Shown here piece by piece: positions 344-57,373 of a stretch of DNA of 64,000 nt. The notes below the pieces were generated by a model. It was not told the DNA's origin, did no database searches, and was given only the letters and a program-made list of their open reading frames with translations. Every line of letters starts with the position of its first letter. The first letter of the stretch is position 1. Origin of the DNA: Parcubacteria group bacterium (GTDB taxonomy: Bacteria; Patescibacteriota; Minisyncoccia; Moranbacterales; GCA-2747515). The stretch lies in contig JBAZXC010000001.1 in assembly GCA_041660065.1 (NCBI GenBank), positions 200,535 through 264,534 on the forward strand, in the 5' to 3' direction. Both the position numbers and the translations under genes were made by a program.

Positions 344-500
344 TAGAGATCAGTTAATTACCTGTTTACGTTTTAAAGGCTATTATAGCACATATTTTAT
401 AAAATGTCAAATGTTTGATTTGTGGGGTGTTTTTGTAAAAACGTGTTTTTTGTGCAGAGTGTTGTATAATAAAAAAGTATAAACAGCTAATAATTCTGTC

Positions 501-1235
501 ATGGGAAAGGATCAATTGCATAATTTGCTTTTTTTGGATGTCGAGACGACGGGTCTCGAAGAAGAAGATCGACTGGTACAGGTCGCCTATGTGTATAATG
601 ACACAGAAAATGAATCGCTTTTCCATCCCGGGCGTGCGATGAGCATACGGTCAATGGAAATAACGCATATCACCAATAAGCATCTGGAAGGAAAAGAAAA
701 ATTTGTCGGATCATCTTTTTACAAAGAACTTGAAAAAATTCTTGCAAAAGAGGATACGATCTTTGTCGCGCACAATGCATCGTTTGATATGGGCATGCTC
801 GCGCGTGAAGGATTGGCGGTCAACAAATTTATCGACACGTTCAAAATCGCGCAGGAATTAGATGTCAAAGGAGATATTCCTGCATATCGTTTGCAATATT
901 TGCGGTATTATCTGGGGATCGATTTGGATGATGCGTGTGCCCACAGCGCGCTTGGTGATGTGAAGGTGTTGGTTGCGCTTTTTGAGCGGATGTATGATAA
1001 GATGTGTGCAAATGACGCGCACGATGCGGTGATCCAAAAAATGGTGCATATTTCCTCGCAACCGACATTAATCAAACGATTTAATTTTGGTAAGTATAAT
1101 GGGGAATTGATCGCAGATGTTGCACGCAAAGATCATGGGTACCTCTCGTGGCTTCTCGGACAGAAAGAATCTGATGCGGCAAATGGTGCGCTGGAGGAAG
1201 ATTGGATCTTTACATTGAAAAAATACATCCGTTAA
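501..1235 (+). CDS. DEDDh 3'-5' exonuclease (DnaQ/pol III epsilon-like) with a C-terminal DUF3820-like tail
   Basis: Exo I motif 'LFLDVETTGL', Exo II 'FVAHNASFDMGML', Exo III 'HSALGDVKVLVALF'. C-terminal 'FNFGKYNGELIADVARKDHGYLSWLL' resembles the small domain often fused to such exonucleases. A sigma70-like -10 element (tgttgtataat) lies upstream. Confidence 0.8.
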   Translation: MGKDQLHNLLFLDVETTGLEEEDRLVQVAYVYNDTENESLFHPGRAMSIRSMEITHITNKHLEGKEKFVGSSFYKELEKILAKEDTIFVAHNASFDMGMLAREGLAVNKFIDTFKIAQELDVKGDIPAYRLQYLRYYLGIDLDDACAHSALGDVKVLVALFERMYDKMCANDAHDAVIQKMVHISSQPTLIKRFNFGKYNGELIADVARKDHGYLSWLLGQKESDAANGALEEDWIFTLKKYIR

Positions 1236-3343: not shown

Positions 3344-3483
3344 GTTTTGAGATCTGATCAGCGGGCACTTTCTTTAAGGAGGAGGTCTTCGTGGCACACA
3401 ATAGGGTTTTTTCGATTGGACAGGCACTCTTGACAAGAGGGCTGTTTTTTGTTATAATAGACAGTTAATTTCAATAAAATAAT

Positions 3484-15946: not shown

Positions 15947-15975
15947 TTGACATCAGAGCGATATTTCCGTATAAT
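15947..15975 (+). promoter_or_regulatory. Sigma70-type promoter (TTGACA-17-TATAAT)
   Basis: ggTTGACAtcagagcgatatttccgTATAATgaa seen directly. It lies upstream of the 16035 ORF. Confidence 0.6.
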
Positions 15976-19453: not shown

Positions 19454-19475
19454 AATACCCGTCAATCTAAATATA

Positions 19476-19503
19476 CCCCCTCTCCCCTCAAGGGGAGAGG
19501 GGG
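19476..19503 (+). terminator. Hairpin/terminator-like perfect inverted repeat after secA
   Basis: CCCCCTCTCCCCT-caa-AGGGGAGAGGGGG: a 13-bp perfect stem, pure pyrimidine/purine arms, followed by ttatt. Confidence 0.5.
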
Positions 19504-19565
19504 TTATTAGAACATATCTAAACAAGAGGTCTTTTGGGTTTTTTCTATTGGCGAAAAACCCCTCT

Positions 19566-19655
19566 TGTCATTCCCGTGAAAATTTGCATTGTATGTGGAA
19601 TAGTTTTGGATTCCCGTCCCCCGATTTCTCGAGGACAAGCTTCACGGGAATGACA
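19566..19655. repeat. MITE-like element copy 1. 15-bp perfect terminal inverted repeats TGTCATTCCCGTGAA...TTCACGGGAATGACA.
   Basis: A near-identical 3' part (ggattcccgtYccccgatttctcgaggacaagcttcacgggaatgaca, 46/47) and identical TIRs recur at 24423-24532. Confidence 0.7.
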
Positions 19656-19671
19656 AATTGATAAAAGGAAG

Positions 19672-19700
19672 TTGACAGGAGACAAAATAAGTGCTATAAT
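19672..19700 (+). promoter_or_regulatory. Consensus sigma70 promoter (TTGACA-17-TATAAT, TGc extended -10) abutting repeat copy 1
   Basis: gTTGACAggagacaaaataagTGcTATAATg seen directly. Confidence 0.65.
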
Positions 19701-19774: not shown

Positions 19775-20065
19775 ATGAACGATGTAAAAAAGATCTTTGT
19801 CGTGTGCAGCGGAGAGGGATGTGGTAACGTATTGGGCTGTTTTGACAAGTACGGCATCAATCGTATTTGTATTGTCGATTGTGGCAAACAAACACCGCAT
19901 GGAAAAGAGCAATTTTTCCAGTGCACAGATACAAAGGATCATGTTGAGCAAGGCGATCTCAGTGGTTACAAAATAGAGCTCGATGAAAAGGGCTCTTGTG
20001 ACCTATGTCCTACTTCAGCTACTGCCAAACTGGATTTGGAGCCGGTAGCGTATATGTCCTCATAA
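19775..20065 (+). CDS. Small Cys-rich hypothetical protein (about 96 aa)
   Basis: RBS aaggagg lies 8 nt upstream of the ATG. Eight Cys including C-x4-C, C-x3-C and C-x2-C pairs. Flanked by a consensus promoter and a strong terminator. Confidence 0.5.
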   Translation: MNDVKKIFVVCSGEGCGNVLGCFDKYGINRICIVDCGKQTPHGKEQFFQCTDTKDHVEQGDLSGYKIELDEKGSCDLCPTSATAKLDLEPVAYMSS

Positions 20066-20075
20066 GGTTTTGTTG

Positions 20076-20116
20076 AGAGTCCTCGTGTATAATTGCGCGA
20101 GGACTCTTCTATTTTT
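20076..20116 (+). terminator. Rho-independent terminator
   Basis: gagagtcctcg-(loop)-cgaggactctc followed by ttctattttt. Confidence 0.65.
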
Positions 20117-20159
20117 ATCAAAATTTTTCTATTTTTCAATTCGATGATAAAATAAACAA

Positions 20160-20654
20160 ATGGTCATACGAAAACAATTTCCACGATTCTTGTCACCGTA
20201 TTGTATTGCACTGGAGAAATCTGTCGGTGCGGTGGTTTTCCGCGTCGAAAATGGAGAAAGGCAGTATCTCGTGATCAAATATCGTAATGGGCATTGGGAA
20301 TTTCCACGTGGGCACATCGAAGACGATGAAACAGAGATCGATACAATGCGCAGGGAGATCCTGGAAGAGGTCAATGTGACAGAATTGGAGGTTGTCCCCT
20401 CATTTCGGGAAAATATTCGTTTTTTTTATACGGCGCAAGGACGGGAAAGAAAGGAGCGTTGTGCGCAAAAAAATTGTATCTTTGTGCATAAGAAAGCAAC
20501 ATTTTATCTTGTCGAGGTACAAGCCCTGGATACGATCGCACTTTCGCATGAACATACGGATTTTGTATGGCTGACATTTCCGGAAGCCTATGAAAAACTG
20601 ACATTTGCCAATGCGCGGTCCGTCCTCAAAAAAGCGCATCAACATGTATGTTGA
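20160..20654 (+). CDS. NUDIX hydrolase
   Basis: Nudix box 'GHWEFPRGHIEDDETEIDTMRREILEEVNV' (GX5EX7REUXEEXGU). Confidence 0.8.
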   Translation: MVIRKQFPRFLSPYCIALEKSVGAVVFRVENGERQYLVIKYRNGHWEFPRGHIEDDETEIDTMRREILEEVNVTELEVVPSFRENIRFFYTAQGRERKERCAQKNCIFVHKKATFYLVEVQALDTIALSHEHTDFVWLTFPEAYEKLTFANARSVLKKAHQHVC

Positions 20655-23865: not shown

Positions 23866-24300
23866 ATGTTATATCGCATAATGCCGGAGAAGTTCAATCC
23901 AAAGTTAGAAGTTGCAGGCGGCTTTATTGAGTGTGGTGGTGAATTCATTTTATTGCATCGGCAAGATCATAAAGCACAAGGAGATACATGGGGGATCCCA
24001 TCTGGAAAGATTCACGACGGAGAAAATCCGCGTGATGCCGCTTGTCGTGAAACTGCAGAGGAAACTGGCGTGATAATTTCGCGAGACCATATGGGTTATT
24101 TTGCAACAGTGTATGTCAGGTATCCTGATTACGATTTTATTTATCATATATTTCACGCCAAAATAAAAAGAAAGGCTGAGATCGAGATAAATAGAAATGA
24201 ACACAAGGATGCAAAATGGGTCTCACCGCAAGATGCATTGCGCATGCCGTTGATCGGAGATCTTGGTACCTGCATAAAACTTTTTTTTCAAAATACGTAG
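23866..24300 (+). CDS. NUDIX hydrolase (second copy)
   Basis: RBS agagagg-N6-ATG at 23866. Nudix box 'GIPSGKIHDGENPRDAACRETAEETGV'. The track ORF 23617-24300 includes an unlikely N-terminal extension that overlaps the previous gene. Confidence 0.75.
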   Translation: MLYRIMPEKFNPKLEVAGGFIECGGEFILLHRQDHKAQGDTWGIPSGKIHDGENPRDAACRETAEETGVIISRDHMGYFATVYVRYPDYDFIYHIFHAKIKRKAEIEINRNEHKDAKWVSPQDALRMPLIGDLGTCIKLFFQNT

Positions 24301-24422: not shown

Positions 24423-24532
24423 TGTCATTCCCGTGAAAACGGGAATCTAGAATTCAGAATTATTATACGACAAATATTGATAGTGGATTCCCGTTCCCCG
24501 ATTTCTCGAGGACAAGCTTCACGGGAATGACA
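24423..24532. repeat. MITE-like element copy 2 (same 15-bp TIRs as copy 1)
   Basis: TGTCATTCCCGTGAA...(internal palindrome ttcccgtgaaaacgggaa)...ggattcccgttccccgatttctcgaggacaagcTTCACGGGAATGACA. Confidence 0.7.
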
Positions 24533-24580
24533 GTTGATCGTATGTAGAAAATTATAGCTATTCGCGGGAATCTACTAGAG

Positions 24581-24609
24581 TTGACATGATCTGAAAATTA
24601 TGCTATAAT
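24581..24609 (+). promoter_or_regulatory. Consensus sigma70 promoter (TTGACA-17-TATAAT, TGc extended -10) downstream of repeat copy 2
   Basis: gTTGACAtgatctgaaaattaTGcTATAATt has the same architecture as the promoter after copy 1. Confidence 0.65.
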
Positions 24610-24681: not shown

Positions 24682-25224
24682 ATGAGAAACTATGCCACCA
24701 GCCTTTTTTCATCAAGTGCGGATGTTGTGGCCACAGCGTTGATCTTTGCACTTTCGATGGGGATACTCCTCGTCATCCTAATTACGGGAATACAAAGAAG
24801 GAAGTTGCAACGAGAGCGCGATGCCTGTTACATGGTATTAATCGATCAGTTCATCAGAAAAAGAAATCCATTGGCTGATTTGATACTCGCTGAGATTGTG
24901 AGGGTCAGTATGACCATTTTAAAAGATGATGGAGAACTGATCAAATATGCCGTAGCAAAGATCCGTGATGCAAAATGTTATCGTATCTTTACTGATAACG
25001 GAATTATTTTAGATGAATATCGAATCATGATTGGTGCGATATTGAATATTGGTGCCCAATACAAGAAAGAGGCATCTGCAGTGGAAAGTGCCAATCAGAT
25101 TTTAATCACGGCGTTTTCAGCTCACTATATTGATATGAGCCAGGGGGTTCAGGCACATCTCAATCGCGCGAGTGACATTTTAATACAAATGTCATCGATG
25201 CTGGATAATCTCAAATCAATCTAA
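24682..25224 (+). CDS. Hypothetical membrane-anchored protein
   Basis: RBS taggagaaag-N4-ATG. One N-terminal transmembrane segment (ALIFALSMGILLVILITGI). Followed by a strong terminator (gcgcccacta...tggtgggcg + T-run, ~25232-25275). Confidence 0.5.
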   Translation: MRNYATSLFSSSADVVATALIFALSMGILLVILITGIQRRKLQRERDACYMVLIDQFIRKRNPLADLILAEIVRVSMTILKDDGELIKYAVAKIRDAKCYRIFTDNGIILDEYRIMIGAILNIGAQYKKEASAVESANQILITAFSAHYIDMSQGVQAHLNRASDILIQMSSMLDNLKSI

Positions 25225-25350
25225 ACCTCGTCAGCGCCCACTACATGTAAATGTTGGTGGGCGTTATTTTTTTTATAGTACAATTTATGGACGAAAAACT
25301 GCTTATCTGGTATGCTATAAATACATTTTATCCGCATTTGCACACATGTT

Positions 25351-33466: not shown

Positions 33467-33624
33467 GATATTTTTTGTTTAATTGATTAGTATAAAACAG
33501 AGCTAATTCTATCATAAATTTCACAAATTGACAAAATGTTACTTTTGTACTATAATAGGCGCTACAGTATAAATTTCCCGTTCTTTTCTTATCTTAATTT
33601 TTGCCAAAAAGGAGAGCAAAATTT

Positions 33625-36986: not shown

Positions 36987-38486
36987 TTATTTGGGTGTTA
37001 TTTTTTTGATACGAGAACGAATGGCACCTTCTTGTCGTCCAAATATCTTCGCAATCGTTTTGATACTTTGGTGTTTTTTGATACATGCTAAAAGTCTCTT
37101 ATCATCTTCCGGTTTCCATGGTTTACCTGCGTGAGGATACATATTTTGTGAATTTTGATGTGATTTTTTCTCTGATGAAGATGTGATTTTTTTATCCGGT
37201 TTCGCATGTATTAAAACTTTTTTCTTTTTCATCTCTTCCTGTTCAAGGGTGGCAGAAATATTTTGAAAAACATGGTCTTTTTTGAAAATGGTAGGATCGA
37301 CTTGCAGAGCAATATCATTTATACCCAAGAGCGTAATATCTCGTAATGTGCGTACACGAGAAAGAGCTACATAACCCATACCGTACTCAAAACACTTTTT
37401 CAGGTCAATCTCTGCAGCATCAAGCGTCATACCTTGGCTTTTGTGTATTGTGATCGCCCATGCTAAGCGTAGAGGCAGTTGTTTGATTTGTGCTAGTTCC
37501 TCGCCATCTTCTTCAATGAGCCATTTTTCCGGGGAGACCCTGATCTCTTCTCCGTGTAAAGTTTTTACAATCGGAAAACGATCCTCATCAAAATCAATGA
37601 CTGTGCCAATCGTACCATTGACATATCCTTGATCGAAATTATTGCGCACAAACATCACAAGTGCGCCTTTTTTGAGAATGAGCTCTTCCGGAGCGAGGCA
37701 TCCATTTTTGATCGCCTCGACTAATTTTTCATTACCATCCGATACCATCCGATACAAAAAGGACTTTTCTTTGATTTTATGCAATTCGTGATTATTTACC
37801 CTATCAACATCAATATTGTGCGTAAAAAGTTTCGTGCGTTCTTGGGCGCTATCTATTTTTTGATTAGTGGCTTTTTTGAGCAAAAGGTGTGTTTTTTCTG
37901 TTACACACTTCCCTCTTATATCAGACAAGACACGCGAGAGAGCATCTTCTTTTTGTCGATATTGCTCTGATAAGTAACAAACTTTTAAATCCATTTCTTT
38001 CCAGCTCTGTGATTGATCGATGAATTGTACGGTCGTCCCGGCGTTTTTTCGTACAGGAGGCAATTGAAAAAAATCACCAGACAAAATGATCTGCATGCCT
38101 CCGAATGATTTTACATTTTCCCGTGCACTGCGTAAGATTTTATTGATCAGATCGATCTGGTACGCATGTAGCATGGAAATCTCATCAATGATGAGCACGT
38201 CAGTCTTTGTGAGACGCTTGTGCACAAGGGGATTTCTGATGATCTTTTTTATTTCTTTTTCGCTCAGATCTTCTTTTATGCCAATGCCCGACCATGAGTG
38301 GATCGTACGACCACCAATATGTGTTGCGGCAATACCTGTAGAAGCTGTAACGGCATAGGAAATGCGGTTTTGTTTTAAATAACCAATGTATGCATTAAGC
38401 AAAAATGTTTTGCCACTGCCTGCCGGTCCAGTTAAAAAGACATTATGCCCTCTTTTCAATATATTCAATGCAAGATCCTGTTTCAT
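36987..38486 (-). CDS. Pif1/RecD-family (SF1B) DNA helicase with C-terminal HTH-like tail
   Basis: Walker A 'FLTGPAGSGKTFLL', 'VLIIDEISML', 'LSGDFFQLPPV', and 'AITIHKSQGMTLD' (UvrD_C_2-like). C-terminal basic helix 'SIKTIAKIFGRQEGAIRSRIKKI'. Confidence 0.75.
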   Translation of the reverse strand: MKQDLALNILKRGHNVFLTGPAGSGKTFLLNAYIGYLKQNRISYAVTASTGIAATHIGGRTIHSWSGIGIKEDLSEKEIKKIIRNPLVHKRLTKTDVLIIDEISMLHAYQIDLINKILRSARENVKSFGGMQIILSGDFFQLPPVRKNAGTTVQFIDQSQSWKEMDLKVCYLSEQYRQKEDALSRVLSDIRGKCVTEKTHLLLKKATNQKIDSAQERTKLFTHNIDVDRVNNHELHKIKEKSFLYRMVSDGNEKLVEAIKNGCLAPEELILKKGALVMFVRNNFDQGYVNGTIGTVIDFDEDRFPIVKTLHGEEIRVSPEKWLIEEDGEELAQIKQLPLRLAWAITIHKSQGMTLDAAEIDLKKCFEYGMGYVALSRVRTLRDITLLGINDIALQVDPTIFKKDHVFQNISATLEQEEMKKKKVLIHAKPDKKITSSSEKKSHQNSQNMYPHAGKPWKPEDDKRLLACIKKHQSIKTIAKIFGRQEGAIRSRIKKITPK

Positions 38487-51093: not shown

Positions 51094-51516
51094 CTAAAAA
51101 AGTTTCTGCACCGATGCATCAAGTGCGTGATTTACCAATGAATCAGCAACCGTGTTTTGCGCACGTGGCACGTGATGGAATGTTACCGCACCAAAATCAA
51201 GCACGCCGTTCCACACAGTGATAAAATACTTTTGCATAGTGGGTTTGGTGATCTTGTATTCATGACGCAATTGCTTTACGACCAATTCGCTATCCAATCT
51301 GCAGATGACATGCGTATTTTTTGCCTTTTGCGATCCGAGAAGCGCTTTGCATTTTTTGAGTGCAAAGATCAATGCCTGATATTCCGCATCGTTATTAGTT
51401 GCATCTCCAATCGTTTCACCATAACGCTTATCATACGTTTTGATCCACACACCAATTGCCGCCGGTCCTGGATTTCCCCGTGAACCACCGTCCGTGTATA
51501 CAATAATCTCTTCCAT
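51094..51516 (-). CDS. rnhA: Ribonuclease HI
   Basis: 'IIVYTDGGSRGNPGPAAIG', 'EYQALIFALK', 'HVPRAQNTVADSLVN'. Confidence 0.9.
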   Translation of the reverse strand: MEEIIVYTDGGSRGNPGPAAIGVWIKTYDKRYGETIGDATNNDAEYQALIFALKKCKALLGSQKAKNTHVICRLDSELVVKQLRHEYKITKPTMQKYFITVWNGVLDFGAVTFHHVPRAQNTVADSLVNHALDASVQKLF

Positions 51517-56447: not shown

Positions 56448-56575
56448 TTTTTTACGTGATCAGATACTGATTTTTAATTATAACATTTTTTATTAGTTTT
56501 GTCAACGGATTGTTTTTTAACATGATACATGCTAAACGACAAAAAAAATTAGTGACCCGGAAAATTACCAGGCCA

Positions 56576-57136: not shown

Positions 57137-57373
57137 CTCCAGTTGTTAAAGTTTTAACCCATAATAACAAAGTACTCTGTGGCAAGATTATAGATGATAA
57201 CTGCATTTTTGTCAAGTCAAAAAGGCAATGTCCAAAAAAAGAGCTGAGTACAAGAATTCAACACAATCCCTGATTTAAGATAGAATGGATTAATGAATAT
57301 GCATCCAAAAAACACCTCACAATCACAATGTTGCAGGGTGCTTTAAAAGTGATTTTTCTCGATTCATCCTCAT

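Follow-up and report, generated by a model that had tools for sequence, protein, structure and literature searches.

The window analysed here, a stretch of 64 kb from a metagenome-assembled Parcubacteria genome (contig JBAZXC010000001.1, 469,125 bp, with the GenBank proteins MFA5985920-MFA5985925), contains two short inverted-repeat elements, each set in an intergenic gap, downstream of one gene and upstream of the promoter that follows. Copy 1 (90 nt, 19566..19655) follows secA and precedes an open reading frame (ORF) for a Cys-rich protein of 96 aa (19775-20065), and copy 2 (110 nt, 24423..24532) follows a Nudix gene and precedes an ORF of 180 aa (24682-25224); the composites themselves have no assigned strand. 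From our point of view, each element is very probably a heads-out pair of tagged hairpins of the repetitive extragenic palindrome (REP) type, belonging to a known and very widespread class that is variously called CGTC-1 REP, dRS3, NTS or SRM (Ssn-related motif), as judged from the sequence of the arms. The full explanation, which blends this assignment with a role of the hairpins as targets of an Ssn-type nuclease, appears to us on balance probable, and we hold it with clearly less assurance.

Architecture of the two elements and their genomic setting

The 15-mer TGTCATTCCCGTGAA occurs at exactly four sites in the window, namely 19566-19580(+), 19641-19655(-), 24423-24437(+) and 24518-24532(-), and these are the two ends of the two elements. 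The perfect 15-nt terminal inverted repeats that a previous sequence-only reading had described at both places were thus found exactly; the conserved 3' half that it had put at 47 nt also recurs, measuring 49 nt (19607-19655 versus 24484-24532, 98% identical), and the coordinates given in that reading were one base off. At their left ends the copies have about 17 nt in common, and their middles with the spacers are unrelated and the spacers unequal in length. The apparent terminal inverted repeats correspond to the outward portions of a pair of hairpins facing away from each other. Folded as single strands, both whole elements reach z-scores of about -6 against shuffled sequences, none of 200 shuffles folding as well. 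In the independent Logan assembly SRR18595301, the contigs break within both copies, as expected for a repeat, and the junctions between repeat and flanking sequence agree with those in the window. From the exact repeats, the strong fold and the junctions in an independent assembly it follows that the feature is real and neither a product of chance nor an assembly artefact. One Logan contig ends at 24452, in the left-hairpin region of copy 2, which hints at further copies in that sample; within the 64 kb, two repeat loci were seen. Searched with the Rfam covariance models, the window yielded only two tRNAs at gathering score; for the element there was no meaningful match at E values of up to 10.

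Copy 2 is the complete composite, consisting of a short SRM hairpin, an AT-rich spacer of 33 nt and an inverted long-loop SRM hairpin. Its tags, or heads, point outward and its tails inward, which makes it a tail-to-tail heterodimer in Di Nocera's terms. The short hairpin on the left (24423..24450, + strand) is of the SRM/NTS type and has the tag TGTC, the stem ATTCCCGT/ACGGGAAT, the loop GAAA and the tail CTAG. Its positions 24427-24446 read ATTCCC-N8-GGGAAT exactly, and compared with the NTS consensus of Neisseria it differs at 3 of 28 positions, two of which form a compensatory exchange of C-G for T-A at the closing pair. The hairpin on the right (24484..24532, - strand) is a long-loop SRM variant that reads, head first, TGTC, ATTCCCGT, the bulge GAAGCTTG, a nested hairpin TCCTCGA-GAAA-TCGGGGA, ACGGGAAT and CCA. 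In such long-loop arms the 4-nt loop is replaced by the 8-nt bulge GAAGCTTG and a nested hairpin of 7 bp, giving a structured loop of 26 nt; as single-stranded DNA (ssDNA), 24484-24532 folds with -11.1 kcal/mol on the minus strand versus -9.4 kcal/mol on the plus strand.

Copy 1 is the same composite with a decayed left hairpin. Its right arm (19607..19655, - strand) is the same long-loop variant, here with the nested stem TCCTCGA/TCGGGGG, and its truncated left SRM (19566..19582, + strand) has kept the tag, the 5' arm and the loop (TGTCATTCCCGTGAAAA), the 3' arm being missing or degenerate and offering no CGGGAAT partner. The tag TGTC is therefore present at all four element ends and the stem ATTCCCGT/ACGGGAAT in three arms, all of which have GTC directly 5' and C directly 3' of the palindrome; the long arms both end in a CCA tail, the short one in CTA. 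An uncertain third SRM 3'-half remnant (GCGGGAATCTAC) may lie at 24562..24575 (+ strand), where a relative of the window's host has CGCGGATA at the orthologous place.

This relative (L125/L126), whose SecF and GltX fall into the same 90% clusters as those of the window, was read over 20 kb, and the intergenic regions were compared by affine-gap pairwise alignment. Both elements are absent from it at both sites, and no SRM-type element was seen anywhere in these 20 kb. At its secA site, the stop codon is directly followed by AAAAAGAAGTTAACAGAAGACAAGATAAGTGTTATGACGGAATCC, the orthologue of the window's promoter region (TTAACA-17-TATGAC), and the relative has nothing that corresponds to the window's roughly 205 nt from 19454 to about 19660, which comprise copy 1 and two further hairpins. 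At its copy-2 site the flanks on both sides are orthologous, the promoter is a perfect TTGACA-17-TATAAT, and 34 nt (TCATTGTGAGAAATCTGCATGAGTTTTTCAAAAA) stand in place of the 110-nt element; they possibly represent what is left of a decayed left arm. The genes downstream of both sites are retained (75% and 32% identical).

The comparison bears directly on the promoters, to which the sequence-only reading had regarded the element as fused. They are indeed textbook sigma70 promoters, with 12 of 12 consensus positions (TTGACA-17-TATAAT) and a TG extension, both at the 96-aa gene (19672..19700, + strand) and at the 180-aa gene (24581..24609, + strand). However, distances of 16 and 48 nt separate them from the repeat, the sequence around them is not common to the two copies, and the fusion is thus not confirmed. 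Of the two downstream ORFs, the first does end in a terminator (20075-20108) and the second is followed by a stem with T-run at about 25234-25275, but they are not the orphans they had been taken for, being kept in the relative; for the 96-aa product itself no exact protein match is on record. Perfect TTGACA-N16-18-TATAAT sites number 8 in the window versus 0.13 expected, and six of them are away from the repeat (382-410(-), 3430-3458, 15947-15975, 33528-33556, 56477-56505(-) and 57187-57215(-)). An extended -10 of the TGn type is present in most of these eight, and near-consensus sigma70 promoters are the rule in this Parcubacteria genome. Since the relative has the promoters and genes without the elements, and since consensus promoters are this numerous in the window, the promoters are features of the host and not cargo of a repeat, which sits in the usual REP position between a gene end and the next promoter.

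The same comparison revealed differences in gene content close to both sites. The relative lacks the Nudix gene of 144 aa that precedes copy 2 (window 23866-24300 versus L125 10966-11608), and between its homologue of the 96-aa ORF and a 164-aa Nudix gene it carries three additional genes, of 48, 265 and 327 aa, the 327-aa product being of the S-Me-THD family (L125 5206-7669 versus window 20065-20160).

The two further hairpins, which had also been predicted in front of copy 1, are present at 19475..19504 and 19522..19568 (both + strand), their z-score being -5.65, and are absent from the relative. The first, just past the secA stop codon, has a 13-bp stem of almost pure pyrimidine/purine composition and does not belong to the SRM family; no copy of it was found in any of the loci fetched from other genomes. 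The second is a two-tier stem of 8 bp outside, a 7-nt 5' bulge and 8 bp inside, the 3' arm of which overlaps the TGT of the copy-1 tag. Its two-tier architecture is that of the long SRM arm, the sequence being unrelated.

Family assignment and the link to Ssn nucleases

CGTC-tagged REPs were described by Di Nocera et al. (BMC Genomics 2013, PMC3733652) as hairpins with a tag CGTC, for which TGTC or CCTC are allowed, an 8-bp stem opening with A-T and T-A, a loop of 4 nt in family 1 with other lengths in some species, a tail close to CCA and a frequent occurrence as dimers. In Neisseria, CGTC-1 corresponds to dRS3 (ATTCCC-N8-GGGAAT), and the class takes in the NIME arrays and RPE-6 of Rickettsia (PMC3733652). 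About half of the dRS3 copies were later redefined as NTS (CGTCATTCCCGCGMAVGCGGGAATCYRG) by Chenal et al. (Nat Commun 2025, PMC11893778), who generalised the NTS to SRMs that occur in several phyla and are spatially linked to a small GIY-YIG gene, ssnA. The arms in the window show the features of this class: (C/T)GTC serves as the 5' tag, ATTCCCGN pairs with N'CGGGAAT over 8 bp, and the nucleotide right after this stem on its 3' side is a C. The SRM pattern, coded from PMC11893778 as HGTCWYN(0-2)YYVSBRHN(0-5)WNVSBRGN(0-2)RNCYNB, has a single match in the window, 24423-24450(+), with 0.05 expected in shuffled sequences. With the arms fitting CGTC-1 REPs and the short arm matching this pattern, the earlier view that the element is of no recognised described family is not supported.

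The likeness to CGTC-1 REPs extends to the TGTC tag variant, the A-T/T-A start of the 8-bp stem, the CCA-like tail and the arrangement as dimers, which in the window are tail-to-tail heterodimers of arms with different loops, set apart by variable spacers (PMC3733652). Regarding the 4-nt loop, the short arm with its GAAA fits, whereas the two long arms have a structured loop of 26 nt. In addition, tail-to-tail dimers are rare among the REPs of PMC3733652 but are the main paired form in the window and of the long module generally; the candidate phyla radiation (CPR) is not among the five phyla listed in that paper, and a loop with a conserved bulge and a nested hairpin is not described in the parts of its text used here. 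The NTS and SRMs of PMC11893778 are alike in the (C/T)GTC tag, the stem ATTCCCG./.CGGGAAT, the GAAA-type loop, the C after the stem and the intergenic location. They differ in that the window has no ssn gene, a low copy number and right arms with a 26-nt structured loop, and in that its host has a reduced Parcubacteria genome, whereas the SsnA homologues reported in PMC11893778 are mostly from Pseudomonadati.

Two other groups of short repeats invite comparison. RAYT-linked REPs carry a GTAG tag. REPINs and BIMEs, the REP doublets associated with RAYTs, resemble the window's elements in combining two inverted REP hairpins in one hairpin-capable intergenic unit that has no target-site duplication and whose tag and hairpin are recognised as ssDNA; unlike them, the window has a TGTC/CGTC tag and no RAYT (Y1_Tnp) match among the ORFs scanned. 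The Correia/NEMIS elements of Neisseria and QMITE1 of Coxiella (PMC5896051) are likewise short non-coding elements with terminal inverted repeats beside genes, but they have a promoter inside the repeat and short target duplications, whereas in the window the promoter lies outside and a duplication is lacking. Integron attC sites were rejected as candidates, the R'/R'' core motifs and other defining features being absent, as was a tRNA-like reading of the CCA tail, again for want of the defining features. The secA 3' end (TGTCACGGGAAATAA) is not a repeat remnant either, as it codes for CHG, the conserved C-terminal residues of the SEC-C motif, and has homologous codons in the relative.

The link to a nuclease comes from the biochemistry of SsnA, which binds the hairpin only as ssDNA and on the forward strand only, cuts a few nt 5' of the tag and does not bind RNA (PMC11893778). 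GIY-YIG Ssn nucleases cleaved the repeats as ssDNA in four species tested, Neisseria and Wolbachia being named among them; these nucleases belong to cd10448, are about 95 aa long and are often encoded by genes flanked by the repeats (PMC11893778). The GTC 5' and the C 3' of the palindrome, both present in the window's intact arms, are determinants of SsnA binding and cleavage, whereas the identity of the loop nucleotides is not essential, and the hairpin may even be split into two oligonucleotides at the loop (PMC11893778). The same type of association recurs in the fetched loci: in three of them (L045, L051 and L098) a small GIY-YIG gene is flanked by these repeats, and L051 and the window have the same SRM core (GTCATTCCCGTGAAAACGGGAATC). 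A homology search with the L051 nuclease placed the Ssn family at at least 7983 clusters among the matches listed, none of which could be tied to the host contig.

We therefore consider, by analogy, how these arms might act in the Parcubacteria host. Whenever a strand is unwound, as in replication, in repair or when transforming DNA comes in, each arm would fold into its hairpin on the strand that reads head-first, and a cognate small GIY-YIG nuclease of the Ssn type, encoded elsewhere in the genome, would bind this hairpin and cut at a distance of a few nt on the 5' side of the tag. The arms being head-first on opposite strands, one cuttable site would be present per strand, and the cuts would fall shortly beyond the element's ends. 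The elements could be gained and lost, with no duplications, via the same ssDNA chemistry or via recombination at the hairpins, and any effect on the transcript ends of secA and the Nudix gene or on the downstream promoters would be secondary.

Several observations weigh against this explanation. Searches with phmmer, a custom hidden Markov model and Pfam found no GIY-YIG or Ssn gene in the 64-kb window. The repeat occurs at two loci in 64 kb and at none in the 20 kb of the relative, as compared with hundreds of copies where the link to Ssn is established. The long arms do not match the SRM pattern, their loops exceeding the 0-5 nt that it allows, and, SsnA activity being sequence-specific, the T-A closing pair and the 26-nt structured loop go beyond the substrates tried. 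Moreover, one relative does not tell an insertion here from a deletion there. Since no enzyme is visible and the copy number is low, the chance that the arms are recognition sites of an Ssn-type nuclease in this particular host appears to us close to even, though somewhat short of it.

The long-loop module in other genomes

The right arms turned out to have a wide distribution of their own. The 22-mer GGACAAGCTTCNCGGGAATGAC was searched in a genome collection of 596 Gb, in which about 0.3 chance matches would be expected (estimated from pattern length and collection size). It was found at at least 120 loci in over ten named lineages, those among the matches listed including Dehalococcoidia, Deltaproteobacteria, Planctomycetota, Verrucomicrobiota, Acidobacteriota, Nitrospirota, Actinomycetota, Bacteroidota, Saccharibacteria (L052) and a Micrarchaeota archaeon (L069); it is also present in one high-GC viral contig. 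The carriers thus include CPR bacteria (Parcubacteria and Saccharibacteria) and a DPANN archaeon. All 120 loci among these matches (L003-L122) come from metagenome-assembled genomes and none from an isolate, and many are located no more than about 250 nt from where a contig stops, from which it follows that the repeat breaks assemblies. The long variant seems concentrated in uncultured lineages of groundwater, sediment and soil, and the exclusively metagenomic sample may reflect the habitats of its carriers. As the sample is anchored on an exact 22-mer, divergent copies are under-sampled in it. An exact 33-mer of the window's right arm had no match in the genome collection, which accordingly does not contain the host species with this very sequence, and a 30-mer searched in a metagenome collection had only one, a singleton long module in another AT-rich genome (L124).

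Covariation was evaluated on 111 distinct copies from other genomes for which the outer left arm could be located. The bulge GAAGCTTG is part of the search pattern and its invariance in the retrieved copies is so by construction; outside the pattern, the left arm is near-uniformly ATTCCCG in the sequences listed, and the CCA tail is present in 88 of the 111 copies. At the outer closing position, 90 copies have C-G, 13 have T-A and 2 have A-T, and the nested pairs 5-7 covary, pair 7 being A-T in 47, C-G in 31, T-A in 14 and G-C in 4. None of 2000 shuffles reached the observed Watson-Crick fraction of these stems. The commonest deviation from Watson-Crick pairing, found at nested pair 4 in 36 of 111 copies, is C.A on the tail-first strand and hence T.G on the head-first strand, an asymmetry which argues that structural constraint acts on the single strand that reads head-first. 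Read on that strand, the loops are mostly GAAA, GAAG or GGAA.

The architecture of the window's elements recurs as well. Among 107 instances of the long module in which pairing could be evaluated, 19 are tail-to-tail, heads-out composites of a short and a long arm, 4 are head-to-head and 70 are singletons. The 19 composites come from unrelated taxa and have unrelated spacers, and all repeat the order seen in the window, i.e., a short SRM, a variable spacer and an inverted long SRM. Short SRMs with 4-nt loops number 55 in the fetched loci. No paper on the long-loop variant sequence was found in a literature search, and PMC11893778 and PMC3733652 are silent on it in the portions of their main text drawn on here; this two-tier variant, and the preference it shows for pairing heads-out with a short SRM, may hence be undescribed.

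Some loci depart from this scheme. Other types of long loop are seen at L082 4877-4990(-), L047 114 and L014 3001, with the bulges GAAAGCCTGCC..., GAAGAGCCTGCC... and GAAAGAACGTC..., each followed by a nested G/C hairpin, so that the design of a bulge plus a nested hairpin is not limited to the GAAGCTTG type. In L021 (2941-2996), a perfectly palindromic long module has tags at both ends (GTCATTCCCGCGAAGCTTGTCCCCGT-ATTC-ACGGGGACAAGCTTCGCGGGAATGAC) and its 'bulge' is paired, which suggests how the asymmetric long variant may be related to a symmetric ancestor. Tandem arrays occur in L006 (2364-2860(-), 7 long modules with a period of 63) and in L051 (3173-3481(-), 5 short SRMs with a period of 70, adjoining the GIY-YIG gene). 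Repeat finders could mis-call both as CRISPR, a reading that we rejected, as the 'spacers' between the repeats are identical.

What the long-loop arm is for can be imagined in different ways. One could speculate that it is a distinct functional module, made up of the outer SRM stem, the bulge GAAGCTTG and the covarying nested hairpin, and not an SRM with a sloppy loop, although we would rate this as rather unlikely. As such a module it could represent an ssDNA site for two activities, with Ssn acting on the outer stem and another activity on the bulge and inner hairpin, or the horizontally spreading form of these repeats.

Alternative explanations and meaning

The alternative that survives best is that the elements are currently mobile, non-autonomous REPIN-like doublets moved as a unit by an ssDNA transposase encoded elsewhere (a Y1 enzyme of the RAYT or IS200/605 type, or Ssn itself), with hairpins that serve mainly their own propagation. 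It is compatible with most observations and need not compete with the Ssn-target explanation, and we regard it as a possible if doubtful account. The perfect terminal inverted repeats and the strong single-strand fold of the whole unit are in line with it, as are the recurrence of the composite with variable spacers in many phyla and the likening of NTS-ssnA-NTS to an insertion sequence (IS) in PMC11893778. So is the presence of both copies here and their absence from the close relative, a difference that implies rapid turnover and bears out the part of the original idea of a mobile miniature element that concerned presence/absence polymorphism. Neither copy has a target-site duplication (flanks CCCTCT|...|AATTGA for copy 1 and CCCCCA|...|GTTGAT for copy 2), also when set against the empty sites of the relative, as in IS200/IS605-type and REP/RAYT elements. 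Against this alternative, Pfam scans of 56 ORFs, i.e., most of the long ORFs of the window, gave no transposase, RAYT (Y1_Tnp) or GIY-YIG gene, and in the fetched loci no transposase stands beside the module, the only such genes being GIY-YIG genes at three loci. Di Nocera et al. found no dedicated transposase for CGTC REPs either (PMC3733652). Furthermore, 70 of the 107 long modules are singletons, and two copies with unrelated spacers and one decayed arm do not suggest recent copying of one master. A simple origin of the inverted pair by internal deletion of an SRM-ssn-SRM unit is not supported, as the repeats flanking the ssn genes in L051 and L098 are direct and not inverted. A classic miniature inverted-repeat transposable element derived from a DDE transposon is not supported either: the 15-nt terminal inverted repeats are there, but a target-site duplication is not, nor is a parent IS with matching ends in the window or beside the module in the fetched loci.

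It can also be imagined that the hairpins act at the RNA level, either guarding the 3' untranslated regions of the secA and Nudix transcripts against 3' exonucleases or insulating the downstream promoter from read-through. REPs are mostly located downstream of coding regions, both copies lie downstream of same-strand genes and upstream of the next promoter, and between the secA stop codon and the promoter the window has three hairpins versus none in the relative. Copy 2, however, lies about 60 nt past a good intrinsic terminator (12-bp stem plus U6), so that little transcript should reach it, and, going by the wobble asymmetry, the strand on which the long arm folds is the antisense one with respect to the flanking genes. 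Given also that SsnA does not bind RNA (PMC11893778) and that no Rfam family matches, we consider a role of this kind unlikely.

For the ideas of an insulator and of a looped operator, both raised in the sequence-only reading, we found no specific support. A double-stranded operator, i.e., a palindromic site at which a dimeric regulator loops the DNA between the arms, would account for the inverted symmetry and for the position just upstream of promoters, and is nevertheless very improbable: the nested stem keeps its pairing while its sequence changes, which is the signature of an intrastrand hairpin, the spacers of the two copies are unequal, the same module occurs in many phyla, in unrelated contexts and in tandem arrays, and the relative keeps the same genes and promoters without the element. 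Least probable of all, and refuted for these two loci by the comparison with the relative, is a mobile miniature element that brings in a consensus promoter, since the perfect promoters with equal spacing and TG extension after both copies, and a similar arrangement in L124, are outweighed by their position in non-homologous sequence outside the repeat, by the six of eight consensus promoters found away from it and by the orthologous promoters and genes that the relative has at both loci without any element.

Other features of the window stand apart from the repeat. Two pairs of direct repeats, 52636-52711/53782-53857 (76 nt, 78% identical) and 55903-56018/56119-56234 (116 nt, 77% identical), are unrelated to the SRM element and lie near ORFs of unknown function. 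Genes of DNA metabolism include a PIF1-like helicase (36987-38486(-)), an RNase H of the RVT_3 type (51094-51516(-)) and an RNase T/ExoX-like exonuclease (501-1235(+)), all of which act on single-stranded or hybrid nucleic acids and none of which is tied to the repeat by anything seen.

Overall, the present analysis removes a false lead, in that no promoter-carrying transposon is present at these loci, and places the repeat in a family whose biochemistry dates from 2025. It further shows SRM/NTS-type hairpins in a Parcubacteria genome of the CPR. Organisms of the CPR are widely thought to take up DNA from the environment; competence genes were not seen in the window. If such uptake takes place, a system that cuts ssDNA at such hairpins would be relevant to the way in which these organisms deal with incoming DNA. 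The 49-nt two-tier hairpin module, almost base-identical across many phyla, is maybe more useful than the original finding, as it represents a concrete candidate substrate for Ssn-family enzymes and for the tools built on them.

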